From the IMG/VR virus record IMGVR_UViG_3300028840_008153, positions 1-35,142 of that record: DNA of 35,142 bases. One strand, written 5' to 3'. The notes beneath the pieces are model-generated. The model did no database searches. It had not been told where the DNA came from and was given only the letters and a program-made list of their open reading frames with translations. This document shows positions 11,049-29,985 of this stretch, one piece after another. Source of the stretch: a virus (taxonomy: Duplodnaviria > Heunggongvirae > Uroviricota > Caudoviricetes). Position 1 is the first letter of the stretch. Every line of letters begins with the position of its first letter. A program made the translations under genes and the position numbers.

Positions 11049-11069
11049 TTTCGGAACCGGTTCCCAAAT
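11048..11069. promoter_or_regulatory. 22-bp palindromic site, copy 1
   Basis: ATTTCGGAACCGGTTCCCAAAT directly after the terL stop. Confidence 0.6.
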
Positions 11070-11115
11070 AGCTAAGGAAAATCAGAGGCCCGCCCTGGTG
11101 CCGGAGCACCAGGGC
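11068..11115 (-). terminator. hairpin between convergent genes, followed by TTTTCCTTAGCTAT
   Basis: GCCCTGGTGC-CGGA-GCACCAGGGC (11092-11115). Confidence 0.6.
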
Positions 11116-11167
11116 AAGCCCTGCTGCATTATCGGACGACATTGAGTCTTGCCTACTCTGCTCCCTA

Positions 11168-11368
11168 TTAAGCGGCTTTTTTGCACTCGTCGCACAAAGG
11201 GCCTTCCTCCGAACAGCTCCAGCCCATGCGCTCGGCGTCACGGGCGAGGATGTCGGCAGCGCTTTCTCCGGGGTCTCCCAGGCGAAGACCGCCGCAGCGC
11301 GTGCAGCATATGAGATTGTCCTCATCGCCGACTTTTACGAACTTTCGCAACTTCGTGGCCTCGCACAT
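11168..11368 (-). CDS. small zinc-finger protein
   Basis: CCTRC...GW...LCDEC; AGGAG RBS. Confidence 0.65.
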   Translation of the reverse strand: MCEATKLRKFVKVGDEDNLICCTRCGGLRLGDPGESAADILARDAERMGWSCSEEGPLCDECKKAA

Positions 11369-11402
11369 TTTGTTTCTCCTGACTACCCCTGAGGGTTAAA
11401 GG

Positions 11403-11440
11403 AAAGAAAAACTTGCCCCGGCGCGAGAACGCGCCGGGGC
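11403..11440 (-). terminator. intrinsic terminator
   Basis: 11-bp GC stem GCCCCGGCGCG/CGCGCCGGGGC then TTTTTCTTT on minus strand. Confidence 0.75.
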
Positions 11441-11463
11441 GTGTTGCCACCGACGAGGTTGGT

Positions 11464-11832
11464 TCAGGAGCGGCTGAAGCAGTGTCCACGCGCGCCGCTG
11501 GAGAAATTGCGGCTGCGGCGGGCTTCGTTCAGATCGTCCTCCAGATCCGTCGGCCAGGCCCAGGAGCCGCCGCGCCGGGTGCAGCGCAGGCTGGTTGCCA
11601 GGGCGTCGTAGCCGATGTCGAAGAGCCGGCCAAAGTGGTCGCGCTCCTTGCGCGCCTTTTCGCCGCGCTCGCTGAAGACGCCGGAGCGCCGGTATTCGTC
11701 GTTGGCGCGAGTGGCCATCCGAACGATCAGCTTGAGCTTCTCCACCTTGGCTCGCGCGCTGACGTTGGCGCCGACGATGTAGTTGCGCACCTCACGTTCC
11801 GAAGTCCTGGGGGAGATCACGAAAGTGCCCAT
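11464..11832 (-). CDS. hypothetical basic protein
   Basis: 122-aa ORF, AAAGGA RBS, followed by terminator. Confidence 0.65.
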   Translation of the reverse strand: MGTFVISPRTSEREVRNYIVGANVSARAKVEKLKLIVRMATRANDEYRRSGVFSERGEKARKERDHFGRLFDIGYDALATSLRCTRRGGSWAWPTDLEDDLNEARRSRNFSSGARGHCFSRS

Positions 11833-12172
11833 CTTACGTCCTTTCTAAGCAGCACCAGGGATAAGCGCCGCCATTTGGAATGCAGGCCCGATGGCGAGAA
11901 CTCCACTTCACCGGACCCGACTTGTTCTTGTTTCCCGGCCGGAACACCCGCACCGGGTCCTGATTTCAACTTGACCCGCTCACGAGCGCACACCGATCAG
12001 CGCCGCTTCCCGCTCACCTCCGTGGTTGGAGCCGGGAGAGATCGATCACTGGCAGATCCGTTTCATCGAAGGTCCGCCGCCCGCATCCGTGGTTGGGGCC
12101 GGCCGAAGCGATCGAGTCCAAGGTCGCCGTGAGTCAGGTCGGGGAGTCCAGATAATTCATCGTGTGTACTTC

Positions 12173-12201
12173 ATACTAGCACGTTTTTGCACGTTTTTTA
12201 G
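12173..12201 (-). promoter_or_regulatory. promoter motif CTAAA-N18-TAGTAT
   Basis: one of seven co-oriented copies with conserved spacing. Confidence 0.65.
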
Positions 12202-12525
12202 CTACGCAGCGGCTGCCTGCGCCTGCTCGGTGGGAATGTCGAAGAGCTTGCACACCGCGTAACGGGCGTGATCGCCCGCATTGAGCAGTGCATAGGAACA
12301 CGAGAAAATGGCTATCCCGCAAGCGAATCCGGCCAGAAGGCCAACGGCCGGCCACATCACGTGGATGCTATGCAGAATGGTCACGGCGATCGAGGCCCAG
12401 CCCAGCGCGCAGGCGCCACTGACCAAAACCTCGTCAGTCTTGCTGTTGGGCTCGGCCCACAGGGACGACACCAGTGTGATTCCGGCGGCGACGAACAGGA
12501 TTGCAGCGAGAAGAGGTGCGGGCAT
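12202..12525 (-). CDS. membrane protein (about 3 TM)
   Basis: MPAPLLAAILF..., AGGAG RBS, hydrophobic segments. Confidence 0.7.
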   Translation of the reverse strand: MPAPLLAAILFVAAGITLVSSLWAEPNSKTDEVLVSGACALGWASIAVTILHSIHVMWPAVGLLAGFACGIAIFSCSYALLNAGDHARYAVCKLFDIPTEQAQAAAA

Positions 12526-12593
12526 TTTGTTTCTCCTGGTTAGAAAGAGGCGGAAAGGGCGAGGGGCCAGCCGAAACCGGCCCCGAGAAAAAC

Positions 12594-12986
12594 TTAATTC
12601 CAAGCGTATCGGGCGTGTCTGACTGCTTGTGCTGCGATGGAGCGCGACGGCGGCACGACCTCAAGTTTGGGAGCCGACGTCAAGACCCAAACGATCGACT
12701 GTGCGAATGTTGACAGGAGCGGGACGCCTACAACAACAAAACCGAGAATGACCCCGATGATACCCACCGTGGCCAGAACGGCCGAGAAGCCGGACACCAC
12801 AGCAAGCACCTGAAGAGCGCCCAACGTGAAAAACCTCAAAGCAAGATACGCGGCAAAGGTGCCGATCGCTGCCGCAACCGCGCGGGCCAGCGTCTGCCAA
12901 CCCTGAACGTTCTCAACGACCCACAGGCCGCCGAGTACCAGCGCCGCCACGGCGGCACAAATCAGCGAGACGATGAAAGGACTCAT
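12594..12986 (-). CDS. membrane protein (3-4 TM)
   Basis: 130 aa, mostly hydrophobic, AGGAG RBS. Confidence 0.7.
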   Translation of the reverse strand: MSPFIVSLICAAVAALVLGGLWVVENVQGWQTLARAVAAAIGTFAAYLALRFFTLGALQVLAVVSGFSAVLATVGIIGVILGFVVVGVPLLSTFAQSIVWVLTSAPKLEVVPPSRSIAAQAVRHARYAWN

Positions 12987-13069
12987 TATGTTTCTCCTGT
13001 TTAACAGCGGGAAACCGACCCGAGCACGAGGCCGGTTTCCCGTAGGGAAATGTACGTGTGCTCTATGGG

Positions 13070-13098
13070 ATACTACCTCGTTTGAGCCCTTTTTTTAG
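13070..13098 (-). promoter_or_regulatory. promoter motif CTAAA-N18-TAGTAT, followed by leader hairpin 13008-13042
   Basis: conserved motif and spacing. Confidence 0.6.
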
Positions 13099-13123
13099 CC
13101 TTTTGAGGCCCGGCCAAAACGGG

Positions 13124-13690
13124 TCAGGAAACGGCCGGCACCCCCTTCGTGATGCCGGGAATGCCGGTGTTGATGACATCGGAGACCAGCTGCTTGGCGT
13201 CCGCTTCCTTCTTCTTCCAGAGGCGCGTGACTGCCGCAAAACTAAGAAGGTTGTACGACGCGATCAGCGACTGGTAGAGCGCGTTTGCCGACAGCGTCCC
13301 GATCAGGATTCTCATCCCCCAGGTGGTCAGCTCCCGCAGATTGGCAGCGATGTTGTGCGCCACGAAAAACCCGCAGAAGATCACGGCGATGCAGGCCACG
13401 ACATCGCTGACCGGCACGTTCCCGTAGAGCCTCGCCCGCTTGCAGGGGAACAAGGGGAAGAAGTGGTGGACCAGCATGGCGATCATGCCGCTCAGGGCGA
13501 ACGTTCCGACACCGGCGCCCCAGTGCAGAATCTTGGCGGGAATCTCGCCGACGTTGTCCTTCACCAGCGTGAGCAGGTTCGGGACGACCAGAAGCCAGAA
13601 GGCCGCAAACAGCACGGCGACTGACATGTATGCCGGGATCACGTAGATGGCCGGCAGGTAAGAGCACAGGTTGAACAGGAATCCAAACAT
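13124..13690 (-). CDS. membrane protein (4-5 TM)
   Basis: MFGFLFNLCSY..., AAGGGGG RBS. Confidence 0.7.
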   Translation of the reverse strand: MFGFLFNLCSYLPAIYVIPAYMSVAVLFAAFWLLVVPNLLTLVKDNVGEIPAKILHWGAGVGTFALSGMIAMLVHHFFPLFPCKRARLYGNVPVSDVVACIAVIFCGFFVAHNIAANLRELTTWGMRILIGTLSANALYQSLIASYNLLSFAAVTRLWKKKEADAKQLVSDVINTGIPGITKGVPAVS

Positions 13691-13733
13691 AGGACCCCCT
13701 TTCATTAGAGTTGACGAAAAGTCAGAAGCCCGA

Positions 13734-14132
13734 TTACCGGCCCTCCAACACTGATGTTTTTGCCGCCTCAAAGAGGCGCACGAAGCCCTGCGGAGAAAGC
13801 AGGGTCCGCGTTTTCATGTGGGTCGCCATGTTGCTGTACGCCTGCATGGCGCACGCGAGAGCGACGTAGCTGCCCATCGCTTCATGTTGAAGCTCTGACA
13901 GCTTTTTGTGTGCGGAGCCGACCGGCTCCATCTCCTCCAACGACTCTTTGGCCACCTCGAAATAAAGCTGGCCCTGGCTGACCATCTTCAGGTACTTCGG
14001 CCAGCATTTGCTGGAGAAGTCCAAGAGCTGTTGACGAGTACGGATCTCAGAAAGACCCGAGTACAGCTCACGGCCTGCCCTCTCAAACAGCCCTTTTGCC
14101 GCCTCGAACTGAAACCTGATCTCCGTGCTCAT
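13734..14132 (-). CDS. hypothetical helical protein
   Basis: 132-aa ORF, AGGAGGT RBS. Confidence 0.7.
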   Translation of the reverse strand: MSTEIRFQFEAAKGLFERAGRELYSGLSEIRTRQQLLDFSSKCWPKYLKMVSQGQLYFEVAKESLEEMEPVGSAHKKLSELQHEAMGSYVALACAMQAYSNMATHMKTRTLLSPQGFVRLFEAAKTSVLEGR

Positions 14133-14176
14133 TCCACACCTCCTGAAAGAGTTAGTAAAAACCGGTCCAGCAAGGT

Positions 14177-14205
14177 ATTGTAACCCGAAAGAGGACTTGA
14201 TTTAG
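14177..14205 (-). promoter_or_regulatory. promoter motif CTAAA-N18-TACAAT
   Basis: conserved motif; -35 box overlaps the RBS of the divergent gene. Confidence 0.65.
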
Positions 14206-14215
14206 GAGCCCGCAA

Positions 14216-14989
14216 ATGCGCCTGGTCCCCCTCCTGTTCCTGCTTCTGCTGGTCGGCTGCGTGGCCGACAACGAATCCAGGCAGTCGTCCGATCCCGTCA
14301 CGGAAACCCACATCAACGTCCCGCCACCCAAGGTCGAGGTGAAGCAGGCGGACACGGACAAGATCGTGGAGGACACGGCCGCCCGCGTCTCGCAGAACGT
14401 CAAGACCGATCTGGCAGCCAACCAGGCCCAGCTGTCCGGCCATATCGTGGCGCAGCTTCACAAGCTGGAGGCCAACATGAAGGGGCTTCTCAATCTGGAG
14501 GCCAAGCTGGAGAACAAGATGTACGCCGACCTGAGAGCCGATCTGACCAGCACGGTCTCGGCCGTCGCCGAGCTGAGGGCCAACTTCAGCGCCAACGTGA
14601 CCGTGACCAACAAGATGGACGCCAAGATCGACAACCAGATGAAGGCGCTCTCGGACATCAAGACCGAACTGGGAAACGTGGCAGGGCAGGCCGACGCCAC
14701 GGTCGCCGCTCAAATGGGCCTGTCCAACAAACTCACCAAGATGCAAACCACGCTGCAGACCGATATCAAGGCGGGGCGGGATGTGAACATGTGGCCCGTG
14801 TCTGCGGTGATCACGGTGCTGGGAATCGTGCTGCTGCTGGGCGGGCTGATCTTCGGGATCACGGCCGTCATTGCCAAGCGGGCCTACGACAACGCGCGCG
14901 CGAGGCAGGACAACTACATGAAGCTGCTGATGGCGGCTCTCGGCGATCTGGAGCCCCACAAGGCCGAGAAGATCCGAGCGCAGCTCTGA
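14216..14989 (+). CDS. lipoprotein with long coiled coil and C-terminal TM helix; candidate unimolecular spanin
   Basis: signal MRLVPLLFLLLLVG-C (lipobox), heptad-rich middle, TM VSAVITVLGIVLLLGGLIFGITAVIA. Confidence 0.7.
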   Translation: MRLVPLLFLLLLVGCVADNESRQSSDPVTETHINVPPPKVEVKQADTDKIVEDTAARVSQNVKTDLAANQAQLSGHIVAQLHKLEANMKGLLNLEAKLENKMYADLRADLTSTVSAVAELRANFSANVTVTNKMDAKIDNQMKALSDIKTELGNVAGQADATVAAQMGLSNKLTKMQTTLQTDIKAGRDVNMWPVSAVITVLGIVLLLGGLIFGITAVIAKRAYDNARARQDNYMKLLMAALGDLEPHKAEKIRAQL

Positions 14990-15022
14990 TAGGTAAAAAA
15001 AGGGCGCCTTACTGCGCGCCCT
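14989..15022 (-). terminator. intrinsic terminator ending TTTTTTTACCTAT
   Basis: AGGGCGC/GCGCCCT stem plus U-tract on minus strand. Confidence 0.65.
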
Positions 15023-15320
15023 GTTTGGCTTTGCCCTCGGCAGTGAGAATCACCTCTGCCAGGGCTTCTACCCAAGACTTCCACCGTGCATGCCGCGCCT
15101 GAGCCATCCGCAGCTCCCTTTCCGCACGAACAAGATCCAACTTGTCAGCGCGATGCCTCTCTCGTTCTAAGTCTTTCTCAGCACGAGCGAGTTCCTGGGC
15201 CTTCAGGTTCTCCTGGGAGCGGCAGTGTGCCATGAGCGTATCTAGTGGGTCCGTGCCGGCCAGCAGGGCTCCACAGTCCGGGCAGAACTTAGTCGTACGT
15301 TCCTTCTGGCAGCAGATCAT
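15009..15320 (-). CDS. zinc-ribbon plus coiled-coil protein
   Basis: MICC...FCPDCG; GGAG RBS. Confidence 0.7.
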   Translation of the reverse strand: MICCQKERTTKFCPDCGALLAGTDPLDTLMAHCRSQENLKAQELARAEKDLERERHRADKLDLVRAERELRMAQARHARWKSWVEALAEVILTAEGKAKQGAQ

Positions 15321-15406
15321 TTGTTTCTCCAGGATGTGAGCGCTCGTACGCTCGGGCTAACTGAAAAACAACAGGAGCAAGGCGTAGCCCACGATCGTCC
15401 CGATCA

Positions 15407-15601
15407 CTACGCCCCAGTTGGTTTCCTTCTCTTCAGCGGGCATGATCGCCCCTCTCTCCCCTCCGTGGACTTCGGAACCGGTTCCGAAATCGGGCCAAAG
15501 GGCAGGTTCAGTTGCCTGCCCTTGCGTTCGTACCTGCGTTTTTCCTCCATCTCGGCCAGGACCCGCTGAAGGATCTGACCGAGGCGTTCGGGCTGTCCCA
15601 T
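15407..15601 (-). CDS. small basic protein with QLNLPF motif
   Basis: ATG at 15601 after GGAGG. Confidence 0.55.
   Translation of the reverse strand: MGQPERLGQILQRVLAEMEEKRRYERKGRQLNLPFGPISEPVPKSTEGREGRSCPLKRRKPTGA
15469..15490. promoter_or_regulatory. 22-bp palindromic site, copy 2
   Basis: perfect 18-bp core TTCGGAACCGGTTCCGAA (15471-15488). Confidence 0.6.
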
Positions 15602-15603
15602 GA

Positions 15604-16113
15604 TCAGCCCTCCATCGCTTTGTATTTGGCCAGCAGGTGAGCCAACTTTATGGACAGTTCGGTGAAGCAGCATAGTTTGTCCACGTCGTGTTCCGGCGGC
15701 ACCAAGCGAACGGCTTCAATGTGAGCAGCACCCACCCGCATTGCCTCCTTCCGGTTCGCCGCCGAAGGCTCCGCCTCGACGATCCGGATCTGAGACCGCA
15801 AGTCGGTAATGGCCCGATGAAGCGTGATATCTTTTTGCGCGGTCTGCACGAAGTCAGACGCGTGGCTGATTCTCTCAGCCTGGTCGAGGAGAAACTGGAC
15901 ATCCTCGTAGTGTCGGCGCATCTGCTGAAACGACGGTCGGAGGAGTCCCTCCGAGGCCCCCAAATCCATCAATCGCTGGTAGATCTCGGCATTCTTTATC
16001 AGCCGAGCCAGCGAATACGCCAGTATGTTCGTCTCTCGCAACCGAGAGAACTCGATGAAGCTCTGGGCGGCCTCTTCAGCCCCCTCTGTGAGGTACTCGG
16101 CTAACGTCCCCAT
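15604..16113 (-). CDS. hypothetical helical protein
   Basis: 169-aa ORF, GGAGGGAG RBS. Confidence 0.7.
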   Translation of the reverse strand: MGTLAEYLTEGAEEAAQSFIEFSRLRETNILAYSLARLIKNAEIYQRLMDLGASEGLLRPSFQQMRRHYEDVQFLLDQAERISHASDFVQTAQKDITLHRAITDLRSQIRIVEAEPSAANRKEAMRVGAAHIEAVRLVPPEHDVDKLCCFTELSIKLAHLLAKYKAMEG

Positions 16114-16149
16114 TTATCTCCCTCCGGTTAAAGGTAAGTCCTGCACATG

Positions 16150-16178
16150 ATTTTAACGCCTGCGGGGGCTGAATTTAG
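16150..16178 (-). promoter_or_regulatory. promoter motif CTAAA-N18-TAAAAT
   Basis: shares CCTGCACATGATTTTAACGCC exactly with the 22536 copy. Confidence 0.7.
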
Positions 16179-16216
16179 AGGCTGGGCCGAAGGCCCGCCT
16201 GTGATAAGATTCGCCC

Positions 16217-16366
16217 ATGAGGAAGGGAAACGAATACGAAAACCGGTACTGCACGGTCTGCCTGAAAACCACGCGACACGAGAAGCGGGGCAGTACGGCC
16301 GTTTGTCTCAGGTGCGGTCGGAAGAAGCGGCCCAGCCAGGCGCGAATACCTAAAAAAGGGCGCTAG
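16217..16366 (+). CDS. 49-aa basic zinc-ribbon protein, probably leaderless
   Basis: not in ORF track; MRKGNEYENRYCTVCLKTTRHEKRGSTAVCLRCGRKKRPSQARIPKKGR; TGATAAGAT extended -10 ends 6 nt before the ATG. Confidence 0.6.
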   Translation: MRKGNEYENRYCTVCLKTTRHEKRGSTAVCLRCGRKKRPSQARIPKKGR

Positions 16367-16375
16367 GCGCCCCTT
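16346..16375 (-). terminator. terminator ending TTTTTTAGGTAT
   Basis: GGGCGC-TAG-GCGCCC hairpin plus U-tract. Confidence 0.55.
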
Positions 16376-16569
16376 CGAAGTTTCTCCGTGCGGGCAATGA
16401 TTCCCGCAGCCTCGACCACGTCTTGCATGTCATCCGCTTCTCGGATGACCCGGCCGGCACGCTCGATCAGCCGCTGCCGCGCCCGATCCAGCTTTTCGGC
16501 ACGCAGCATTCGTAGGGTCTGGTGACCTCTACGCAGCGCTATCCGTCGCTCGCGTTCCTTGGTCGTCAT
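16363..16569 (-). CDS. small Arg-rich helical protein
   Basis: 68-aa ORF, AGGAG RBS. Confidence 0.65.
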   Translation of the reverse strand: MTTKERERRIALRRGHQTLRMLRAEKLDRARQRLIERAGRVIREADDMQDVVEAAGIIARTEKLRRGA

Positions 16570-16592
16570 GGCTCTCTCCTGTCCTCCGGGTC

Positions 16593-16623
16593 AAAGAAAA
16601 GAGCGGGCCGAATTGGCCCGCTC
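16593..16623 (-). terminator. terminator-like hairpin in the 5' leader
   Basis: GAGCGGGCC/GGCCCGCTC 9-bp stem plus TTTTCTTT. Confidence 0.6.
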
Positions 16624-16640
16624 CTAAAGGTGCGTACTTT

Positions 16641-16669
16641 ATCCTAACCCCTTCAGGGGGTTATTTTAG
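16641..16669 (-). promoter_or_regulatory. promoter motif CTAAA-N18-TAGGAT
   Basis: conserved motif; -35 box overlaps the upstream stop codon. Confidence 0.6.
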
Positions 16670-17364
16670 AGGCTGTAGTGCATGAGCTTGACGGACTCGC
16701 CGTCGATCTCGACGTAGGTGTTGGAGCCTTTCCACTCCCCGGCATTCACGTACTCGATCCGTCCGTCTCCACGGACGTGCTCGGGCGTGTGCAGGTGGCC
16801 CATCACCAGAACGTCAAAACCCATCTTGCCGTAGTGCCTCCGAGCCTTCTCCCGCATCCCGTCCTTCAAGCGCTGGTAGCTGTTGCGGTCCTTGAAGTAG
16901 GAAGGAGCGTCGTAGGCCCGTGGTTTGGGAGGCTTCATGAAGAGGTGCTCGCAGACCTTGCGGGTCCACGAACTGAGGCGGTAGAGGGGGTAATACCACA
17001 ACATCATGTGGTCGAACTGATGACCGTGGATGACGGCCACCTTGCGCTTGCCCGCACGCACGGCCGTGAAGTGGGGCCGGACGGGCACGGTGTTGGTGTC
17101 GAGAACGGGGTCTTCCAGGTAGGCGCTGTCGTGGTTGCCCAGCAGGTACTCAACAATGACCTTTTTGGCGTAGAGCCGATCGAAGAAGGTTTGCAGGCTC
17201 TTGTGCTTCTGTCGAAGGGTCTCGGCGTCCTCGTCCCAGAGATCAAACAGGTCCCCGGCAATGATCAGGCGGTCACATTCGAGCGTGAACAGGAAGCTCT
17301 TGAAGGCTTCCAGCTCGCAGCGGACGCTGCCAATGTGGATGTCCGACACGATAACCGTCTTCAT
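16666..17364 (-). CDS. calcineurin-like metallophosphoesterase, LpxH-like
   Basis: SDIHIG, AGDLFD, GNHD, HGHQFD, GHLH, YVNAGEW. Confidence 0.85.
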   Translation of the reverse strand: MKTVIVSDIHIGSVRCELEAFKSFLFTLECDRLIIAGDLFDLWDEDAETLRQKHKSLQTFFDRLYAKKVIVEYLLGNHDSAYLEDPVLDTNTVPVRPHFTAVRAGKRKVAVIHGHQFDHMMLWYYPLYRLSSWTRKVCEHLFMKPPKPRAYDAPSYFKDRNSYQRLKDGMREKARRHYGKMGFDVLVMGHLHTPEHVRGDGRIEYVNAGEWKGSNTYVEIDGESVKLMHYSL

Positions 17365-17376
17365 TCACGGGTCACC

Positions 17377-18396: not shown

Positions 18397-18407
18397 GCTT
18401 CCTCCTC

Positions 18408-19313
18408 CTACGTTGGGATCTTCCAGAACTCAAGATCCGCGTCCGAGATATAGAACGTGCGCGTGGGGCCTCCGACGGCGGCGCCTTTCCATCGCAGGGC
18501 AAACTGACGTGACTGACTCGTGAAGTCGATGTGAAAGAACCCCGCGTAGTTCACGCCATCGTCGTCCGAGTCCAGGTAGAACGTTCTGTGCTTGTAAGCC
18601 ACGCTATTGGTGACGTCGTAGATTTGAACCTCAATATCGCCACCAGAACTCATATACAGGAACGCCGAGAAGCCAACCCTGTACATACCAGTCAGCGTCG
18701 GCGTCGTGAACGAGGTCTTGGTCGACCACGTCGTTTTTGACGTGGTTGAGCTTTCGCCGTGTGAACTGGAATATTGATGGTCCTGATAGCCGGGCCCCGT
18801 TGTGCCCGAGGCCCCTGTGACCCCTGTGACGCCCGTCGCACCAATAACGCCTTGCGCCCCCGTAGCGCCCTGCGGACCTGTGGCCCCCGCCGGACCCTGA
18901 TCGCCGGTGGCGCCCTGCGGCCCCGTTGCCCCTTGTGCCCCTTGAGGGCCCGTCGCCCCCGTCACGCCGTTGGGGCCAGTGGCGCCCGTTGGACCGATCG
19001 AACCTGTCGGGCCCTGATTACCGGTCACTCCTTGCTGCCCGGTCGCGCCGGTAATGCCAATGGCCCCCTGCGGGCCAGTGACCCCCGTAGCTCCGTCCGA
19101 GCCGGTAGCCCCCGTAGCGCCCGTCGCGCCCGGGGGTCCGACTTCCGTTACGTTTGTGGTGGAGCCGTCATCGTCCTTGGTGTACCACTTGGACGTGGCC
19201 GTGCTGTAGATCTGGGAGCCCTTATATACGTTGGTGGGTGTCGACGTGGGGTCGTGATCGACCGTCACGCTGCGCAGCTGCTCGCCCAGATCGATAGTGC
19301 CGATGATGGCCAT
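18408..19313 (-). CDS. collagen-like fibre protein 3
   Basis: G-X-Y repeats (GAT/GPT/GPQ) between N- and C-terminal globular domains. Confidence 0.85.
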
Positions 19314-19316: not shown

Positions 19317-22000
<2,684 letters not shown>

Positions 22001-22484: not shown

Positions 22485-22535
22485 GACACACCCTCCAATG
22501 GGTTAAAAGTGCGGACATCACTCGTCCTGCACATG

Positions 22536-22565: not shown

Positions 22566-25207
22566 AGGCGCAGACGCGCGGCCCACTTCGACACGTATGC
22601 ATCCCAGCTCTCCTTGGAGATGACCCATCCATCCGAAGTGTCCGTCGTCGCCAGAAGCTCACGGCGCGTAAGGTCCTCAACAACATTGCCGATGTTGAGC
22701 ACGGGAAGGTGGTTGTTGCGGGAAGCGCGCAGGAGGGGAGGGCTTTCCAGCATGACCTGTCCGCCGACGTCATCGATCATGATTCCTTTCTGGCGCTTCT
22801 TGTTTTGAAGCCGCGTGCGGTATTCCTCAAACGGCATGTGATCCAGCACCATCAACCCGTCCTTTCGAAACCAGCAGAAAAGGTCGATGAGGGCCTCGGC
22901 AGGCTTGACGGTTGCGCGAAAGTGCTTCCTGGCGGCTTCGATCAGGTTGAGCACGGGCAGCTTCAGGTAGACGGCGTACCAGCTGCAAAAGTCTTCAAGG
23001 AGCGCGTCGCCGAGCACCCCCTCGGGCAGCTGATACTCCTTGGCCTGGAGCGCGATGAGGTAGTTGAGAATGTCATCGAACGGCGGCCACTCGTAACTCT
23101 TGTTCTCGACGGCAAAGACTTCGCCCCAGCGCCCGCCCGTGGCCAACGCCGCCGCGTCGTGAGGCCCAACCACGAACAGGGCGTTGTCGTGGCAGGCTGG
23201 AGGCCAGAAGCGCAGCTGCCCCCCAGCCGTGCTGCGAACCATCGAGGGGTAGCTTCGCATGCCAAGGCCGTCCCGAATCTTGTTGATGTTCGGACGGACA
23301 TAGTCCTCAACGCTGTGCTGCGGCATGCCCGCCTGTTCGGCAAGATGACGGCACAGAAGATCGGCCTGGGAGCCCGGACCGCCCGTGAAGGCCCACGGCC
23401 GCGCGAGTTCGCCCTTCATGGGCGCCACCAGGTTGTGAACGAAGGCTGCAGCCGCGCACGCGAAGATCGCCCGGCTTTCCACGTCCTCGTCGGCCTGGGA
23501 GGGCTGCCGCTCCTTTGGTGCCCGCACGCAGCTTCCCGGCATGTTGGGCAGCATCGTGTCCTGCTTGCATACCGCCCCCTTCTCCACGAAAAAGGCCGGA
23601 AACGAGATGCGCCCCGTTTTGTCCACGCCCACCGTGGTTGTCAGCCGCACCGTACGGGGGTCGCCCAGCATCTTGGCAATGTTTATCAGCTTGAGTTGCC
23701 ACTGCTTGTTGATAAGTGGAACGCCCATGCCCGCCGTGATCATCGTGTCCCGAAGCCACGAGGCGAAGCTGCGCTCGATCTCCACGAGATCGTCGAAGAA
23801 CGGGGCCTTCTGCCCTTTGTACTCGATCACGCCCTCCCAGTAGATCTTCTTGGCCTGCGCGTCCACGACTTCCCTGTTCACACGAACGATCGCGTCGCAG
23901 ATGCATTCCTCGCCCTTGGAGTGCATGATGAACCAGCCGTCGGGCCGCTCCAGAATCTTCTTGTTGCCGATGATTGCCTGTCGAACCACGGGCAGGTCGC
24001 CCAGATAGTATTCCAGCTTTGCCTTGCGAGCGGCAGGACAGGCTTCCAGAAGCTCCTTGCGTTCGCGCGTGGTCAGCGCCAGCGCGTTGAGCGCGACGTC
24101 GATGTCCGTCTCCTTGCGCTTGTCGTCGGTCAGCCACAGGGACAGCGCCTCGGGCCACGGGCGCGCGTGCTCCTCCATGAGCTTGAGCGCGGCAGTGGCC
24201 GGCCCCCGGGTGAAATATTCCTGGGGCGTGGAGCTGCGAAGTTCGGGGTGGGATGTCACAAAGCCGTTGGCGCCCAGCTTCTTGGCCTGCGCGAAGACCT
24301 TCCATTCGGAGCCCGGTGACCAGAAGATCACCCGGGAGGCATGAACGGACTGCCACGCTCTGTCAGTCTGGTCGTTGTAGAGCACCAGTTTGAGGGGGGT
24401 GTCGAAGGTCGCAAAATGCCGATTGTGCAGGTGCAGGGCGGCCTCAGTGTCGTCGGTGGCAAAAGCGACCCGGTCAAAGGGCTTGAGCGCCTCCAGCATG
24501 GCCAGCCCGCCCTCCATGCCGAGCCGGTTGGTCACGTTGGCCCTGATCAGAGGGCAAAAACGCTCCCGCCCCCGATCGTCGAGGAAGCGCAGACCGCATG
24601 TGCGCCCAGGCACGTCCTGGTAGTTGAGCACGAGGCTGGTGCCAAACCCCCCTTTGGGAAAGACCTTCCGGTAATCATTGCCCATCACCTGCAGAATTTC
24701 CTTGCGCGTGGTGGCACCCACGAAGCGCACAAGTCGGTTGGATCTGCGCCCTCGCCCGCTCCACAACCGGGCTTTCTGGAGCCGTTCGAGCAGATCGGGG
24801 CGCGGAGAGCCCAGCAGCCCTTCCTGAAAGGTCTCCCAGAAGCCCCTGACCTGACGCCAGCGCTCGGGAAAGTTCGTCACGTAGGCTTCGATGGAGCCCT
24901 TGTCGGCAGCCACTTCCGGGGCTTCCTGAAAGAAGCCCTCCTCGATGGCACGGCTGACGGCGTCGCGCGGGTCCTTCAAGGAATGCATGTAACCAAAGAA
25001 CTCTACGGAATCTCCACATTGGTTGCACCGTCCGCAGTGCATCCAGTATCCTTCCAGGCAGGGGTCGATGTAGATCGACAGGGATTTGTGATTACACAGC
25101 GGACAAGTCGTTCTCTCTGGAATGACCCCCTTGACGGTGATCCTTGCGGCAGCTAGGATCTTGCTGGGAGCAAGATGTCTCGATAAGTTCTTCGGAGGAG
25201 TCAACAT
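22562..25207 (-). CDS. large primase-like protein (N-terminal primase-type zinc finger; catalytic motifs not evident)
   Basis: CPLC...WMHCGRC..CGD zinc finger; P-loop-like FTGGPGSQ lacks GK[ST]; 881 aa. Confidence 0.55.
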   Translation of the reverse strand: MLTPPKNLSRHLAPSKILAAARITVKGVIPERTTCPLCNHKSLSIYIDPCLEGYWMHCGRCNQCGDSVEFFGYMHSLKDPRDAVSRAIEEGFFQEAPEVAADKGSIEAYVTNFPERWRQVRGFWETFQEGLLGSPRPDLLERLQKARLWSGRGRRSNRLVRFVGATTRKEILQVMGNDYRKVFPKGGFGTSLVLNYQDVPGRTCGLRFLDDRGRERFCPLIRANVTNRLGMEGGLAMLEALKPFDRVAFATDDTEAALHLHNRHFATFDTPLKLVLYNDQTDRAWQSVHASRVIFWSPGSEWKVFAQAKKLGANGFVTSHPELRSSTPQEYFTRGPATAALKLMEEHARPWPEALSLWLTDDKRKETDIDVALNALALTTRERKELLEACPAARKAKLEYYLGDLPVVRQAIIGNKKILERPDGWFIMHSKGEECICDAIVRVNREVVDAQAKKIYWEGVIEYKGQKAPFFDDLVEIERSFASWLRDTMITAGMGVPLINKQWQLKLINIAKMLGDPRTVRLTTTVGVDKTGRISFPAFFVEKGAVCKQDTMLPNMPGSCVRAPKERQPSQADEDVESRAIFACAAAAFVHNLVAPMKGELARPWAFTGGPGSQADLLCRHLAEQAGMPQHSVEDYVRPNINKIRDGLGMRSYPSMVRSTAGGQLRFWPPACHDNALFVVGPHDAAALATGGRWGEVFAVENKSYEWPPFDDILNYLIALQAKEYQLPEGVLGDALLEDFCSWYAVYLKLPVLNLIEAARKHFRATVKPAEALIDLFCWFRKDGLMVLDHMPFEEYRTRLQNKKRQKGIMIDDVGGQVMLESPPLLRASRNNHLPVLNIGNVVEDLTRRELLATTDTSDGWVISKESWDAYVSKWAARLRL

Positions 25208-26516
25208 GCGCGGCCCTGCCGACTTCTACGATGATGCCAACCAACAACAACTATACACGCTGGACCGACTGTATGGCCTCCCGAAGTTCGTAAAGGAAGC
25301 CGAACAGGAGGAGAAGGCAGGCATCAATCGATTACCTTCTCACGTTTTCGCAGATCGAGTCCGGCGCAAGTTCCCTTGCCACACGAAGGCGGCAACGTGG
25401 CTTGCCCAGGCGTACTTCTGCCTGGCTGAACCCCAATACTCTAAGGAAGAAAGGGCGCTTGTTCAAGACCGCATCACCAAACAAGCGGCTTATTGGGGTG
25501 TGAAAAATACGACCGACCGGCTTCGGACGACGTGGCAGAAGCTCGCCTCGACCGAACGGCCGGAGGTCGGCGACGCGGATCACGCGCTCGTGGTGGACAT
25601 GGGAGAAGGCAAAAAGATGCGCCGAATGCCCATGCCCAACGCGATGTCGGTCAAGCTGGCCGGTGAGTACCTGTTTGCCAACCGGTACAATTACCCGTAT
25701 CAGTGGCGCCGCGCGGCTTCCCGCCGAATCCTGAAAAAGGCCATGGAGTACGACGCCAAATTCAGGGAGGGCGAGAAGGTGGCTGGGGCCGGATTGGGCG
25801 TCCTGCAGTTCGACGACGACACGCAGGAATACCTGGAACGTGCCAGCGGCTTCGGCATGTGCCATCCCAAACAGGCCGCCGAGCAGCTCTCCCGCCGGGC
25901 GCTGATGATCTCGTCCCGCTTCAATGACGTGCGAGAGAAGATCGCCACGATCGCGCAGGAACTCCACGAGATGGAGGAGTGTGATGCGGAACTGCTCCAC
26001 AAGGTTGCCGAAGCCGTGGATTGGGCCGATCGGCAAACCGGACTCTGCAAGCAGTACCACCTCGGAATCGATCTGCCTGAAGAAATGTTCTTTCAGGTCT
26101 TGGAGAAAGAGGCCGAAGCGGTCATCAACAACCACGTCACGCTGACGACCGGCAACAGCTGGCCGATCGAGGTCTTCTCGCATCTGCCCGCCCAGAAGGT
26201 CGCCGAGGTGCTTGGCGGCGATATCGCCGACGCGCTCGAAGGCAACCACGGTCTTCTGGACCTTGAGAAATTCGCAGAGATCGCGCCCACGCTTCCGCGT
26301 CCCGACGCCGAGCTTCTTGAAACGGCGCTGAAAGCCGCCGCCGAAGAGGCGTACGAGAAGGACGCGACCCTGATGAAGCAAGGCCGTGCCCCCCTCAGCG
26401 CGAACTTCAAGTTCGACAAGGATGAATGGACCAACTGGCACAAACGAATGGTGGCTGCGGACCCGCGCGGCGTTGGAGTTGAATCCCCCCTCAGGCACAA
26501 CCAACAAGTCCTCTAA
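25206..26516 (+). CDS. hypothetical protein, K-x-A motif rich, possibly head-associated
   Basis: ATG at 25206 after GGAGGAG; FADRVRRKFPCHTKAATW; 436 aa. Confidence 0.75.
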   Translation: MRGPADFYDDANQQQLYTLDRLYGLPKFVKEAEQEEKAGINRLPSHVFADRVRRKFPCHTKAATWLAQAYFCLAEPQYSKEERALVQDRITKQAAYWGVKNTTDRLRTTWQKLASTERPEVGDADHALVVDMGEGKKMRRMPMPNAMSVKLAGEYLFANRYNYPYQWRRAASRRILKKAMEYDAKFREGEKVAGAGLGVLQFDDDTQEYLERASGFGMCHPKQAAEQLSRRALMISSRFNDVREKIATIAQELHEMEECDAELLHKVAEAVDWADRQTGLCKQYHLGIDLPEEMFFQVLEKEAEAVINNHVTLTTGNSWPIEVFSHLPAQKVAEVLGGDIADALEGNHGLLDLEKFAEIAPTLPRPDAELLETALKAAAEEAYEKDATLMKQGRAPLSANFKFDKDEWTNWHKRMVAADPRGVGVESPLRHNQQVL

Positions 26517-26526
26517 GGAGTCGGGC

Positions 26527-27609
26527 ATGAGTGACGCAGAAGAACTGGGCGAACTGATCGGCCTCGAATTTGAAAAAGAGGCCAGACGGCCGGGTATGAT
26601 GCGCGCCACGGGACGAAAGGCACCGCGTCAGCAACCCGCGCAACGTCGAGCACAGCGTGATCGTCCGCAGCAACGGCGACCTCGGCAGCGCCCTCAGAGC
26701 CGACAGACCGCCGGTTCGGGCGGTCCCCGGAAGCCGGCACCCAAGGCACAACCGCTGGCAAGGCGTCCCTCGGGCGCCATGGCCACGACACGAGCGCCGG
26801 CCCCCACACCCGCAGCGCGAAAGCCGCTGGTCACGCCTGCACCCTCCGGTACGGCCGGAACCATCACACCCCCTCCGGGCGGCGCGATGGTCCGACGCCC
26901 TGAAACCCGGTTGGCTGGCGGCGCGAAGCCCGTCGTTGAAGTGCTGCCTCCGCAGGCTGCTCTTCCGTCCCCGGCAAGGCAGCTGGGTATGCGTGTCGGG
27001 CGTTCAACCAGAGTTGACGTGCCGCCTGCAGCGTCGGCACCTGCGGCGCCGGCCCTTCCGGCACCGACGGCAGCCCCCCAGCCCGTGAGCGCAAAGCCGC
27101 CTGCGGGCGCTCGTACTGTTCGCCGAAAGCGCGGACTCCGAGGGGGACAGCCACAACCTGATCTGCCGCCGCCTCCCCCGCGCGCGATGCCGCAACCCAC
27201 GACGCCTCCGGGCGCTCGTGCCGTCAAACGAAAGCGGAAGCTCAGGGGCGCGGAACTCGCACCAGCGACTACACCGGCGGCAACCGCGCCGGCAGCGGCT
27301 GCGCCAGCAGGCGCACAAACGCCTGAATCCCGGTTCATGGCCGAAGCGGCCAAAAGAACCCCAACAGAGCCAGCACCGGCCGCAGCCCCCGAATTTGTTC
27401 CTTTGGCTCAACGGCTCGGACAGGCCATCGGTGTTCAGCCGCAAACCATCAACCGTCTTGGCAGTGTTGGACTGGGCGTGGGCGGCGGCCTGATGGCACG
27501 AAGCGCCTTGGCTGACCCGCACGAGGAAGCTCTGCGGCAGTACCTGCTGGCAAACCCGTTCATGTACGGGCAAATGAACCCCTACGCCGCGTCCATGATG
27601 ATGTACTAA
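26527..27609 (+). CDS. Pro/Ala/Arg-rich low-complexity protein
   Basis: ATG at 26527 after AAGGAG; internal repeat PP(A)GAR-x-V-x-RKR-x-LRG. Confidence 0.7.
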   Translation: MSDAEELGELIGLEFEKEARRPGMMRATGRKAPRQQPAQRRAQRDRPQQRRPRQRPQSRQTAGSGGPRKPAPKAQPLARRPSGAMATTRAPAPTPAARKPLVTPAPSGTAGTITPPPGGAMVRRPETRLAGGAKPVVEVLPPQAALPSPARQLGMRVGRSTRVDVPPAASAPAAPALPAPTAAPQPVSAKPPAGARTVRRKRGLRGGQPQPDLPPPPPRAMPQPTTPPGARAVKRKRKLRGAELAPATTPAATAPAAAAPAGAQTPESRFMAEAAKRTPTEPAPAAAPEFVPLAQRLGQAIGVQPQTINRLGSVGLGVGGGLMARSALADPHEEALRQYLLANPFMYGQMNPYAASMMMY

Positions 27610-27613
27610 ATCC

Positions 27614-28354
27614 ATGCGAATCGACAAACGGCCCTTCATGAGACAGCTCGCCGACCCGGATGCAATCGGGTCGGTGCTGCTCGTTGGGCTGCTTGACGAG
27701 TATGGCACGGAGATGTTCGGCTGGGAGCCACAAACGCTGGACATGGAAGTGAAGCATGATTGGAGCGTGTCCATCCCGCAGGTCAACAAGGACAAGATCT
27801 GGGCGTTGGTGACCGAGCTGACCACCAACCTCTTCTACACCAGCCTCGACGCGTTCACCCACATCTGTAATGCACTGAACGGCTCCGGGGCCGACTTCCA
27901 GAACTTCGACTTTGCCACCGTACAGGAGATGTGCTGGGCCATCGCCGAAGTGCAGTTGCTGGACCCGCCCGAAGAGGGCGAGATGTTCAACGAAGAGATT
28001 CGTTCCTACATGGCCACGCGCCTGAAGGACGAAGGCTTCGAGCGCGTGCCGAAGATTCTGAAGCCCTATGTCGAAATGCCCGACAACGACGAAACGATCG
28101 ACGGCGTACTGCAGGATGACGGCATCGAAGCTAAGGCTTTTTGGGATCGTCAGATGCGGGAGGTGTTGTCGATCGACCAGTTCGTCCGGGAGCGGCTCCA
28201 CAAGCTGTTCGTGGATCTGGCCTCCCTTCCGCTTGAGAACGCTGATTCCGAAGCAATGAAAGCGACGTTACAGCGCGCCGGTAAAGTTTTGGCAGGACAA
28301 TCGCAACAGACAGCACGGGAAGAGGAATCCGTTCGACCTGCTCCAGTGTTGTGA
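27614..28354 (+). CDS. acidic hypothetical protein
   Basis: 246-aa ORF with GC-rich third codon positions. Confidence 0.75.
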   Translation: MRIDKRPFMRQLADPDAIGSVLLVGLLDEYGTEMFGWEPQTLDMEVKHDWSVSIPQVNKDKIWALVTELTTNLFYTSLDAFTHICNALNGSGADFQNFDFATVQEMCWAIAEVQLLDPPEEGEMFNEEIRSYMATRLKDEGFERVPKILKPYVEMPDNDETIDGVLQDDGIEAKAFWDRQMREVLSIDQFVRERLHKLFVDLASLPLENADSEAMKATLQRAGKVLAGQSQQTAREEESVRPAPVL

Positions 28355-28685
28355 AGTCGAAGATCTTGTGCGGCTCATCCGACACTAGCGCAAACCGATT
28401 ATCCAGAATCTGAAGCGTGATGGCCGGAAGCGACTTGGAAAAGTCCGCCGCCTCGTACAGCCTCCCCAGATCGTAGAACCGCTTGTCGAAGCGCTTGATG
28501 ACTGAGCATGCATGTTCGGTGTGAAACCCCAACTGCTTGAGCATGTCATAGGACACGACAGCCAGCATCTCGCCGTCCGTCAGGGCGCCCTTCTGCGGGC
28601 CGTTCAGAACGGTATTGAGCACGAACCTGATGTCCTTCTCCGTCAGGTCCGTGACCACCGTAAGGGATTCACTGTCGAACATCAT
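28131..28685 (-). CDS. hypothetical protein
   Basis: ATGA-coupled to upstream gene; overlaps the convergent gene by 224 nt. Confidence 0.6.
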   Translation of the reverse strand: MMFDSESLTVVTDLTEKDIRFVLNTVLNGPQKGALTDGEMLAVVSYDMLKQLGFHTEHACSVIKRFDKRFYDLGRLYEAADFSKSLPAITLQILDNRFALVSDEPHKIFDFTTLEQVERIPLPVLSVAIVLPKLYRRAVTSLSLLRNQRSQAEGRPDPRTACGAAPGRTGRSTTPPASDDPKKP

Positions 28686-28993
28686 AGGGCAAGCGTGATC
28701 TTCCAAACCTGTCGGTAGCGGAGATCATCCCGGCGCGTAGCGATGTCCGCCGCGTTGACGGGCGGCTCGCCGGTCTTGCGGTCCACGGCAAAGGGGCCAC
28801 CCTCCTGGGAAATGCCGGCCTTCTCCATCCCGTGTTTGAGACGCTCGTTGTAGGCCAAAGCGCGAGCTGCCGCCGAGGTCACCTCCTCCAGATTGGTCCC
28901 CTCGACAATGACGCGGATCGTGTTCGTGGAAAGCGCGCTGCTCTGGAATTGACTGTCGTCAGGCTTCTCCACTTCGTGGATCTTCAGTCCCAT
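28682..28993 (-). CDS. hypothetical protein
   Basis: MGLKIHEVEK..., GGAG RBS. Confidence 0.7.
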   Translation of the reverse strand: MGLKIHEVEKPDDSQFQSSALSTNTIRVIVEGTNLEEVTSAAARALAYNERLKHGMEKAGISQEGGPFAVDRKTGEPPVNAADIATRRDDLRYRQVWKITLAL

Positions 28994-29004
28994 GGTGTTC
29001 TCCA

Positions 29005-29026
29005 ATTTCGGAACCCGTTCCAAAAT
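29005..29026. promoter_or_regulatory. 22-bp palindromic site, copy 3
   Basis: ATTTCGGAACCCGTTCCAAAAT just upstream of the RBS of 28682-28993. Confidence 0.55.
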
Positions 29027-29083
29027 GCTGCCAAAGTTTCTCGGACCCTATCAGCGGCGATGTTCGATGTCAAGAAAGTCCTG

Positions 29084-29133
29084 ATAGCTAAAAAGAAGGC
29101 AGCCGCCCCGGAGAGGGGCGGGACGGCTGCCTT
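29084..29133 (-). terminator. intrinsic terminator ending TTCTTTTTAGCTAT
   Basis: AAGGCAGCCG/CGGCTGCCTT stem plus U-tract. Confidence 0.7.
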
Positions 29134-29157
29134 GGCCGGCGGGCCTCCACCGCCGGT

Positions 29158-29298
29158 TTAGAAAATCAGCCAGAGCGCGGCCCCGAAAAACCCGAGGCCG
29201 AGCAGGCTCAATGGGGTTGTCTTTTCAAGAAGGACCATGAAACCGTCCCACAGCCCCTTCGCACACGAAAGCAGGAATCCTCCATCTTCTTCGCCCAT
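29158..29298 (-). CDS. 46-aa membrane peptide
   Basis: not in ORF track; MGEEDGGFLLSCAKGLWDGFMVLLEKTTPLSLLGLGFFGAALWLIF; GGAGG RBS. Confidence 0.6.
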   Translation of the reverse strand: MGEEDGGFLLSCAKGLWDGFMVLLEKTTPLSLLGLGFFGAALWLIF

Positions 29299-29354
29299 AT
29301 CGTTCCTCCAGGCCGCCCGCCCGCTTGAGCGGGCGACCGATCCCAGTGGAAAAC

Positions 29355-29870
29355 TCAGGTGCCAAGAGGCAGGGGCGTTGCGCCCGGTCCGGCCTCCTGT
29401 GAAGGAGTGATATCGGTTTTGGCCTCTTCCTGCTTGAGCGCCAGGGTGTAGGCGTTGCGAAACGCCTCGTCCTTGACCCGGAGAAGCTGGCAGATCTGCT
29501 TCACCGCCGTCTCCCGCTCCGGTCCATCGGCACGCTCCTTCGCCACCTCTCCCAGCCGGAAGACCGTTCGGGGATGCAGGCGAATGTGGGCCTTGTTGAA
29601 CGCGCCCCGCCCCACGCCATGAATGTCGGCACCGATCCGACCGGCACGACGAGCAACGGCGACGACGATGTCACCCACCAGGGCGACGGTGTGAATGGCA
29701 ACGGCGGGCACGACATACGACACGCTCGCACCAGCGCCGCAGCCATAGCAAGCGGCCAAATTGAGACCGCCCATCTCCTGCTCGCCGGTCTGCAGGACTC
29801 CGGCGACCTCCGTCTTGAGTTGCTCGTCCACCTTCTGTTCCTGCTTCTGCTCTTGCTTTTGCTCATCCAT
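29355..29870 (-). CDS. hypothetical protein with hydrophobic segment
   Basis: MDEQKQEQKQEQK..., AAGGGGG RBS. Confidence 0.65.
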   Translation of the reverse strand: MDEQKQEQKQEQKVDEQLKTEVAGVLQTGEQEMGGLNLAACYGCGAGASVSYVVPAVAIHTVALVGDIVVAVARRAGRIGADIHGVGRGAFNKAHIRLHPRTVFRLGEVAKERADGPERETAVKQICQLLRVKDEAFRNAYTLALKQEEAKTDITPSQEAGPGATPLPLGT

Positions 29871-29956
29871 CTGAACCCCCTTTCGTGCCGATCCTCGCAC
29901 TCGGGACCGGCAGCCAATGTTTGACTCTCCGGCCCCAAAAAGGCCCTATGCACAGT

Positions 29957-29985
29957 ATTTTAACGCCATCCCGGGCGTGATTTAG
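29957..29985 (-). promoter_or_regulatory. promoter motif CTAAA-N18-TAAAAT
   Basis: ATTTTAACGCCAT...GTGATTTAG, near-identical to the 22536 copy. Confidence 0.7.

Follow-up and report, generated by a model that had tools for sequence, protein, structure and literature searches.

The DNA examined here (the window) is a stretch of 35,142 nucleotides that forms the first 35 kb of a 163,142-bp virus record from IMG/VR (IMGVR_UViG_3300028840_008153, called G000 below; Caudoviricetes). The record is 78% complete and has a GC content of 60.6%, with nearly every gene on the minus strand. Around two landmark genes, one for a terminase of the GpA type (9189-11048, plus strand, 619 amino acids (aa)) and one for a conserved 881-aa protein (22562-25207), the window contains five compact blocks of small minus-strand genes, at 11068-14205, 14989-16178, 16346-16669, 22050-22565 and 29084-29985. 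A first-pass annotation had described these blocks as self-contained cassettes with inverted CTAA-type ends, and had suggested either mobile moron-like cassettes or a single protein that recognizes both transcription start and stop. We will argue that the blocks are probably autonomous promoter-to-terminator units of a phage with its own RNA polymerase, accreted in a hyperplastic gap, and not mobile cassettes.

The limits of the blocks, and the three stacked units (A1, A2 and A3) within 11068-14205, are as that annotation had drawn them. The cargo of the stack (11168-14132) consists of products of 66, 122, 107, 130, 188 and 132 aa, three of them with predicted membrane helices and none with a family match. 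Block 14989-16178 encodes proteins of 169, 64 and 103 aa (15009-16113), of which the 169- and 103-aa products were scanned and gave no family match. Block 16346-16669 carries a 68-aa basic protein (16363-16569), and block 22050-22565 a 134-aa orphan protein (22080-22484) with no relative among 5.8 billion proteins. In block 29084-29985, the cargo (29158-29870) is a 46-aa membrane peptide and a 171-aa protein, from the open reading frames (ORFs) 29158-29298 and 29355-29870, respectively. All of these genes are on the minus strand. The earlier description of the cargo as orphan small or membrane proteins holds: none of the 13 products scanned matches PHROGs, none of the seven scanned matches Pfam, and membrane helices are predicted in five cargo products.

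Predicted CTAAA promoters and boxed terminators

The CTAAA promoters that had been placed at the heads of the minus-strand units are found at 12201, 13098, 14205, 16178, 16669, 22565 and 29985, far above chance. The pattern CTAAA-N18-TAnnWT occurs six times in the window, on the minus strand only, where shuffled sequences give an expectation of 0.05, and a seventh copy with N19 spacing lies at 22536-22565. With two conserved elements at a fixed spacing, a TAnnAT -10 element and a location upstream of genes on the same strand, these motif pairs have the form predicted for bipartite promoters of the sigma-70 family. Their fuller form, CTAAA(T/A)-N13/14-G(C/G)GT-TAnnAT, is specific to the clade, and the class is also present in the relatives L001, L002, L004, L006, L199 and L200-L205.

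The stack has one such minus-strand promoter for each of the units A1 (12173-12201, CTAAAAAA-N-TAGTAT), A2 (13070-13098) and A3 (14177-14205). The other four blocks begin at 16150-16178, at 16641-16669, with a GC stem-loop within the spacer, at 22536-22565, and at 29957-29985, again with a spacer stem-loop. The promoters at 16178 and 22565 share 23 identical nucleotides, which cover the -10 region and the first transcribed bases (direct repeat family D9). The coincidence of several ends with neighbouring stop codons or a ribosome-binding site is real, and can be read from the sequence at 12202, 14205, 14989, 16666 and 22562. The TAG stop codon of the upstream gene at 12202 abuts the A1 promoter, and the complement of the A3 promoter overlaps, at 14205, the AGGAG ribosome-binding site of a plus-strand lipoprotein gene (14216-14989), whose own TGA stop falls within the tail at 14989. 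The TAA stop codons of gene 16666-17364 and of the 881-aa gene lie inside the CTAAA of the 16669 and 22565 promoters, respectively. Eight of the roughly ten CTAAA promoters in the whole record cluster around the terminase-side variable region.

We now turn to the other end of the blocks. The five ATASSTAA tails that had been noted beside terminators are present at 11068, 14989, 16346, 22050 and 29084, each with a GC hairpin and a T-run. ATASSTAA occurs five times in the window, on the plus strand only, compared with an expectation of 0.31, and none of 100 shuffles reaches five. Each tail adjoins an A-run and then a GC hairpin, equivalent on the minus strand to a hairpin and a T-run, so that the transcribed strand reads hairpin, T5-7 and AGCTATCAG. 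This conserved sequence, called the box below, is longer than the tail originally recognized. At all five sites a GC stem-loop stands directly before the T-run and downstream of a gene, which is the predicted form of an intrinsic terminator. We also agree that the tails, the left motifs of the blocks, lack a -10 element at the promoter spacing.

The terminator of unit A1 (11068-11121, hairpin 11086-11121) has an interrupted T-rich run and a degenerate box, TTAGCTATTT; it is convergent with the terminase gene and about 80% identical in the relatives L006 and L008. At 14989-15022, a hairpin (15001-15022) is followed by a T7 run and the box variant ACCTATCAG, an arrangement that is kept in L006. 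The terminator at 16346-16372 (hairpin, T6 run, box variant AGGTATTCG) overlaps the 3′ end of a plus-strand zinc-ribbon ORF (16217-16366). That at 22050-22079 (hairpin, T6 run, box AGCTATCGG) is followed by a candidate promoter for the collagen-like fibre genes, TTGCCT-N17-TAGAGT (22038-22010). The terminator at 29084-29133 consists of a hairpin (29096-29133), a T-run and the box AGCTATCAG, and 7 nt past this box stands TTGACA-N17-TAGGGT (29073-29045); the whole arrangement is kept in L199. All five act on the minus strand by prediction. Within the stack 11068-14205, a terminator and tail are found only on the last unit, and A2 and A3 have none.

The whole record, almost all of whose genes lie on the minus strand, has nine ATASSTAA sites, every one of them on the plus strand and thus downstream of minus-strand hairpins. 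Four minus-strand terminators have a T-run of at least 6, and all four carry the box, while hairpins within units are boxless; the strand bias thus follows the direction of transcription. The four sites outside the window (72983, 52422, 115002 and 133646) are located beside core genes: the box at 72983 follows a core gene that is 74% identical in the relative G001, and the one at 52422 stands just before a baseplate-J gene. G001, moreover, has a box at a place without a CTAAA-promoter block, flanked by its homologues of the 30005 and 28682 genes. Because it adjoins core genes and a cassette-free site, the box is not specific to the cassettes.

Its orientation tracks the direction of its own unit. 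The point is settled by L199, where a 71-aa unit encoded on the opposite strand comes with a CTAAA promoter and a hairpin plus TTTTTCTTAGCTATCAG of its own, both oriented with the unit. The box is furthermore found at convergent junctions, including the terminase end in the window and in L006, L008, L001, L004, L201, L227 and L239. At the divergent junctions checked there is no box, and CTAAA or TTGCCT-N17-TATAAT promoters are found instead. Presence at convergent and absence at divergent junctions is the pattern to be expected of a stop signal, not of a start signal.

A number of other identities for these motifs were considered. The box was compared by eye with IHF, sigma-54, MotA-box and -10-like elements, and these options were dropped because the spacing or key bases misfit. 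The tail does not work as a plus-strand promoter, having no -10 element at the CTAAA spacing, nor as a three-frame stop, as it covers just two frames. A full-text literature search with the box sequence returned primers only.

Some related observations can be added here. The first transcribed bases CATGTGCAGGAC are common to two CTAAA promoters (16136-16149 and 22522-22535 in the window) and recur at a TTGACG-N18-TACAAT promoter in G001 (about 81100-81121), that is, as a conserved start-site region across two promoter classes. In two very short units, at 162100-162391 of G000 and 2107-2255 of L002, only about 75-120 nt lie between a strong CTAAA promoter and either a T-rich run with a box-like sequence or the terminase end; these are candidates for small RNAs or tiny peptides. 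A sixth unit of the same design likely lies outside the window, at 52422-52840 of G000, between two conserved structural genes. Its CTAAA-like promoter is the variant ATAAA..TACCAT (52812-52840, score 18.6), and its hairpin and box span 52422-52460, with the baseplate-J start directly next to the box. Finally, at 59556, 143799 and 181149 (plus strand) of G001, a T-run and then G(A/G)ACGCGTCCAAC(A/G) follow hairpins on the non-coding strand, a sequence not seen in G000.

Phage RNA polymerase and related genomes

Relatives were collected by terminase alignment in IMG/VR, because the 881-aa protein used alone as a query gave no pattern match there. A terminase identical to that of the window is also found on contigs of up to 198.5 kb (a sister assembly of 198.5 kb), and the complete relatives measure 192-208 kb, two of them with direct terminal repeats. 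As no integrase was found and relatives have direct terminal repeats, the phage is probably virulent. The closest relatives compared have a terminase identity of at most 87%, and the clade comes from sediment and seawater, with GC contents of 47-60%. Among GenBank phages, megablast gave zero matches for 11000-30000. The 619-aa terminase has no exact entry on record; a 606-aa form is present.

G000 encodes a 1818-aa fusion of beta and the N-terminal part of beta′ (89715-95171, minus strand; Rpb2 domain 6 and Rpb1 domains 1-2, with a 2H-phosphoesterase-like insert), a 612-aa protein with the C-terminal part of beta′ (84090-85928, minus; Rpb1 domain 5) and a 255-aa factor of the sigma-70 family (54132-54899, minus; regions 3 and 4), for which SigB/F/G, RpoD and FliA are the best models. 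All three proteins are kept in G001, and the beta/beta′ fusion is present at 48-51% identity in all five complete box-carrying relatives of about 200 kb. The nearest cultured relative is Salmonella phage Arash, at 26% identity in the terminase and 32% in the polymerase. Its virions contain beta, beta′ and sigma, and the paper on it describes no promoters or terminators (PMC10585845). Arash is thus distant, and the box does not occur above chance in its genome (3+3 matches vs 1+3 for a control).

In the clade itself, the signals are well conserved. The 14-mer TTTTTAGCTATCAG is found in at least 120 stretches in IMG/VR, and at 47 such loci with homologues of the phage's proteins there are strong hairpins right before the T-run (mean -17.8 vs -8.5 kcal/mol). 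About 85% of the clade's box copies have an adjacent hairpin at a fixed geometry. The five complete relatives have 4-6 copies of the 13-mer each, 24 on the main strand vs 2, while the reversed control gives 0. Promoter and box are both retained in relatives with GC contents of 47-60%; where a phage has a multisubunit polymerase of its own, short private signals that persist from host to host are to be expected.

The region from the terminase stop to the stop of the 881-aa gene (11049-22561) is hyperplastic, measuring 11.5 kb here, compared with 37 bp to 6.4 kb in 24 relatives and 37-770 bp in many of them. This bears on the claim that the blocks are placed flush between core genes. It stands for the blocks at 22050 and 29084; the others lie inside a larger variable island, in which the plus-strand and fibre genes between the blocks are not core, being themselves part of the hyperplastic region. 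Relatives with a terminase identity of at least 51% have one to three CTAAA promoters in the gap, with a promoter of the same class at or near its 881-aa end. In L001, L002 and L004 (terminase 51-54% identical), the terminase gene is followed by one small minus-strand CTAAA-headed unit and then by the 881-aa homologue, and the shortest unit-holding gaps among the relatives contain just one small unit of this same design. The T-run and box are kept beside the terminase stop in L001, L004, L201, L227 and L239. A relative at 66% identity has glycosyl- and methyltransferase-type genes in the gap instead.

Among the closer relatives, the blocks are largely fixed, as the stacked units and the 29084 block are syntenic in them. 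L006 (terminase 87%, GC 52%) retains the three stacked promoters, each at the corresponding position and with identical bases around the -10 element, and also keeps the lipoprotein gene and a 14989-type terminator with box. Most of its cargo has diverged past tblastn recognition; the 122-aa protein has homologues in L006 (58%) and L008 (49%). In L199, the 29084 block is in place, with its promoter, the only homologue of the 171-aa cargo protein (52% identical), a small membrane peptide, the terminator, the box TTACCTATCAG and the next TTGACA-N17 promoter. G001 lacks the CTAAA-promoter block 29084-29985, and there the same flanking genes enclose a short ORF and a terminator with box. A second assembly of the same phage (99.9% identity) displays no gain or loss of a cassette, the differences being confined to the collagen-like repeats.

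Whole-unit gains and losses do occur, and they break at the punctuation. The 71-aa unit of L199 is extra relative to the window and is bounded by a tail and TTTTAG; its junctions display no duplicated target. In L006 and L008, two additional small genes separate the 11068-type tail from the end of the terminase gene.

The ends themselves are less elaborate than the term inverted ends would imply. They share about five bases (CTAAA/TTTAG), extending to GCTAAAAA in two promoters (5-8 nt), and a repeat search found no inverted repeat of at least 18 nt linking block ends. The repeats that are present are direct (promoter family D9, leader end D16 and terminator pair D18). What look like inverted CTAA...TTTAG ends are no more than the -35 pentamer and, seen from the other strand, the junction of the T-run with AG. 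Matches to Pfam-type models of mobility enzymes (Phage_integrase, Resolvase, DDE_Tnp_1, TnpB-type, HNH_3) are absent from the 163-kb record, which is 78% complete. Thus, none of the marks of a transposon or a miniature inverted-repeat transposable element (MITE) was found for the blocks, be it inverted repeats of some 10 bp or longer at the ends, a duplicated target site or a transposase. A likeness to integron attC sites lies in the box and hairpin that follow the stop codons of successive small accessory genes. However, no attC core pair (RYYYAAC ... GTTRRRY) occurs near any of the five tails, no Phage_integrase match was found, and the stems are short, perfect and GC-rich with T-runs, i.e. 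of the terminator type. Contigs of two DNA runs on 10500-30400 contain no excision joints at block ends, although contigs cannot show rare circles, and well-supported joints there fall in the collagen-like repeats only. A weak 21-letter joint from 13346 to 25877 was disregarded.

Nature of the units and role of the box

In the explanation that we favour, each unit would start at a private, clade-specific bipartite CTAAA promoter, the last unit of each stack would end at an intrinsic-type terminator extended by the clade-conserved box, and such units would have piled up in the gap between the terminase and 881-aa genes. The phage holoenzyme would read the CTAAA promoters, and the box may act together with the terminator at the transcript end, as a termination enhancer or factor site. 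Gains and losses of units would come about by recombination at or near the conserved punctuation, rather than by a dedicated recombinase. For the box taken separately, an end-of-transcript role seems somewhat better than an even bet; it is favoured by the fixed hairpin geometry together with the occurrence at convergent and the absence at divergent junctions.

The moron-like character suggested in the first-pass annotation fits well. A moron, as defined by Juhala and Hendrix for lambdoid and HK97-type phages, has its own promoter and terminator and is inserted between genes that are adjacent in related phages. Here, the five blocks are predicted to have both a promoter and a terminator (A2 and A3 are without the latter), and the short gaps between the terminase and 881-aa genes elsewhere show that the genes on either side are neighbours in relatives. 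The cargo is of no known function and dispensable, and the gap ranges from 37 bp to more than 11 kb, with gains and losses of whole units. It is important to point out three differences. The promoters here are phage-specific, while those of morons are host-type; a single large variable region of a phage of about 200 kb contains the stacked units; and there is no compositional contrast with the genome, the blocks having a GC content of 0.54-0.63 vs 0.606 and a third-position GC content just slightly lower.

Another parallel is offered by the promoter-early stem-loops (PeSLs) of T4-like phages (Arbiol et al. 2010, PMC2839356; Comeau et al. 2014, PMC4122927). As in that system, short promoter and stem-loop punctuation is concentrated in a hyperplastic region and stands directly upstream of orphan genes, stop codons and ribosome-binding sites are packed into the motif, and whole small units are gained and lost between relatives. 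For PeSLs, recombination between the motifs and mini-circles have been demonstrated (PMC2839356, PMC4122927). Direct punctuation repeats such as the 23 nt of the 16178 and 22565 promoters could support recombination here as well. At a variable distance past the box there is often a TTGAC-type or CTAAAT promoter, and the box would then be part of a terminator-then-promoter composite of the PeSL kind. Such composites are seen at 29084, at 115002 and at the G001 sites, in addition to the spacer stem-loops of the 16669 and 29985 promoters. PeSLs differ in using the host sigma-70 consensus, which the main promoter here does not follow, being a clade-private CTAAA promoter in a phage with its own polymerase and sigma. 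Also, their stem-loops take variable positions inside the promoter, whereas here the stem-loop is at the 3′ end of the unit with a fixed T-run and AGCTATCAG.

Several points weigh against this picture. The distance of the relatives (terminase at most 87%) prevents indel junctions from being defined at the base level, and a recombinase could sit in the missing part of the genome, as the record is 78% complete. CTAAA promoters are few, with three or four in G001 compared to the roughly ten of G000, and their connection to the phage sigma is one that we infer. Often just 8-20 nt separate the box from a ribosome-binding site and start codon, too little to accommodate a promoter (at 52422, 133646, in L006, L008 and at several IMG/VR loci), so that these terminators must leak unless the box serves the gene downstream. 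A non-canonical geometry is seen at the terminase junction of L001, L004, L227 and L239, where about 16 nt lie between the strong hairpin and the T-run. We also know of no fixed downstream sequence that intrinsic terminators require.

A more far-reaching version is possible, though less likely than not. The T-run and AGCTATCAG box would here mark transcript ends in a sequence-specific way, would have co-evolved with the phage polymerase and sigma, and would form together with the CTAAA promoter a private start/stop code; in the strongest form of this idea, the same part of the holoenzyme would read CTAAA at starts and its complement at stops. The earlier suggestion that one machinery may read both signals gains partial, indirect support from the encoded polymerase and sigma and from the clade-wide conservation of both signals. 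Phages of the phiKZ and AR9 groups, which likewise carry beta- and beta′-like subunits, have multisubunit RNA polymerases with private promoters. These are short single elements without a -35/-10 pair, unlike the bipartite -35/-10-type promoter of the present phage, which also carries a sigma.

It is rather unlikely, though worth weighing, that the box is an RNA-processing site, where a cut between hairpin and box would yield an upstream RNA protected by the hairpin and a downstream RNA that begins shortly ahead of the ribosome-binding site, or else a DNA site at which a bound phage protein would halt the polymerase next to a T-rich release element. The fixed hairpin geometry, the nearness to ribosome-binding sites, the orientation with transcription and the retention of the box across phages of 47-60% GC would all agree with such roles, and roadblocks have analogues in Reb1 and TTF-I for eukaryotic Pol I and in the L5 repressor at its stoperators. 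However, no nuclease or binding protein was identified, convergent junctions offer a processing site no downstream gene to serve, and every box is accompanied by a T-run, whereas operator-type sites are dispersed.

Slightly less probable still is that the T-run and AGCTATCAG are a promoter, for instance a late or sigma-independent one for the phage polymerase, fused to the preceding terminator as a composite stop/start. This would account for a sequence-specific box that is confined to a polymerase-carrying clade and is often followed immediately by a ribosome-binding site and start codon, and for the best box matches preceding structural genes (the fibres at 22050 and baseplate J at 52422); PeSLs are composites of this type (PMC2839356). 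At convergent junctions, on the other hand, it would fire antisense into the terminase, lipoprotein and zinc-ribbon genes, a placement that is kept in relatives, and it is missing at the divergent junctions examined, where an operon must start. The adjacent hairpin at fixed geometry in most clade copies also speaks against it, and structural genes are already preceded by TTGAC-N17-TAnnnT promoters (e.g. 74069-74097).

It is very improbable that the blocks are mobile cassettes whose defined inverted ends serve a site-specific recombinase or transposase in an integron-, MITE- or transposon-like manner: the orphan cargo and the whole-unit differences of L199, L006 and L008 would be expected of them, but against this stand ends with so few shared bases and no long inverted repeat, the missing target duplication, attC cores, excision joints and enzymes, a GC content equal to that of the genome, the tail at core and cassette-free sites, and the synteny in L006 and L199, which is largely the fixation that the first-pass annotation, along with ragged boundaries, had named as speaking against mobility.

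Private phage promoters and moron- or PeSL-type accretion in a hyperplastic region are known kinds of phenomena. The present analysis adds a candidate promoter class and a strictly oriented, terminator-fused box in an uncultured clade of phages of about 200 kb. Promoter maps exist for very few groups of phages with their own multisubunit polymerase, and maps of their stop signals hardly exist; an oriented box fused to terminators in such a clade is unusual. Should the box prove to be a sequence-specific signal for termination, processing or a roadblock, this would be one of the rare cases in which transcript ends of a bacterial-type polymerase are encoded in sequence, and it would give a handle for operon annotation in the clade. 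A private start/stop code, if true, would free small accessory units from host transcription factors and make them portable between relatives on different hosts. A hyperplastic region of self-contained units in a group unrelated to T4 extends the PeSL/moron picture of how orphan genes are acquired.

Leaders, palindromes and neighbouring genes

Between the A1 promoter and the first gene there is a 340-nt leader (11833-12172) with a duplicated CCAACCACGGAKG..GCGGG segment. Its predicted structure is no greater than that of shuffles (z = 0.15), and an Rfam scan of the window gave nothing at gathering score. The leader end CAGGAGAAACAAAATG is common to small genes at 11366-11385, 12523-12542 and 12984-13003, and also occurs at 15318-15335, and TTTAACC stands just ahead of the ribosome-binding site in many leaders. 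These common leader ends look like a standardised translation-initiation region.

A 22-bp palindrome, TTCGGAACCGGTTCCGAA, is present at 11047-11069, 15468-15490 and 29004-29026, the last copy directly upstream of a ribosome-binding site. Matching palindromes (TTAGGAAC/T..TTCCTAA) lie close to the end of the terminase gene in L006 and L008 and, in L199, within the leader of the 28682 homologue. The element looks like an operator or a translational-operator hairpin.

In the region 12202-14989, the multi-pass membrane proteins of 107, 130 and 188 aa adjoin the protein encoded at 14216-14989, which has a lipobox, a coiled coil and a C-terminal helix. This may be a lysis region, with holin-like proteins and a spanin-like protein; no endolysin family was detected.

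Glycosyltransferase genes are located beyond 31 kb. The collagen-like fibre genes (18408-22000) lie within the variable region, and between the two assemblies of the same phage their part at 19700-21400 is 91% identical with many indels (390 vs 417 aa). These genes break every short-read assembly, and thus constitute a hypervariable repeat region.

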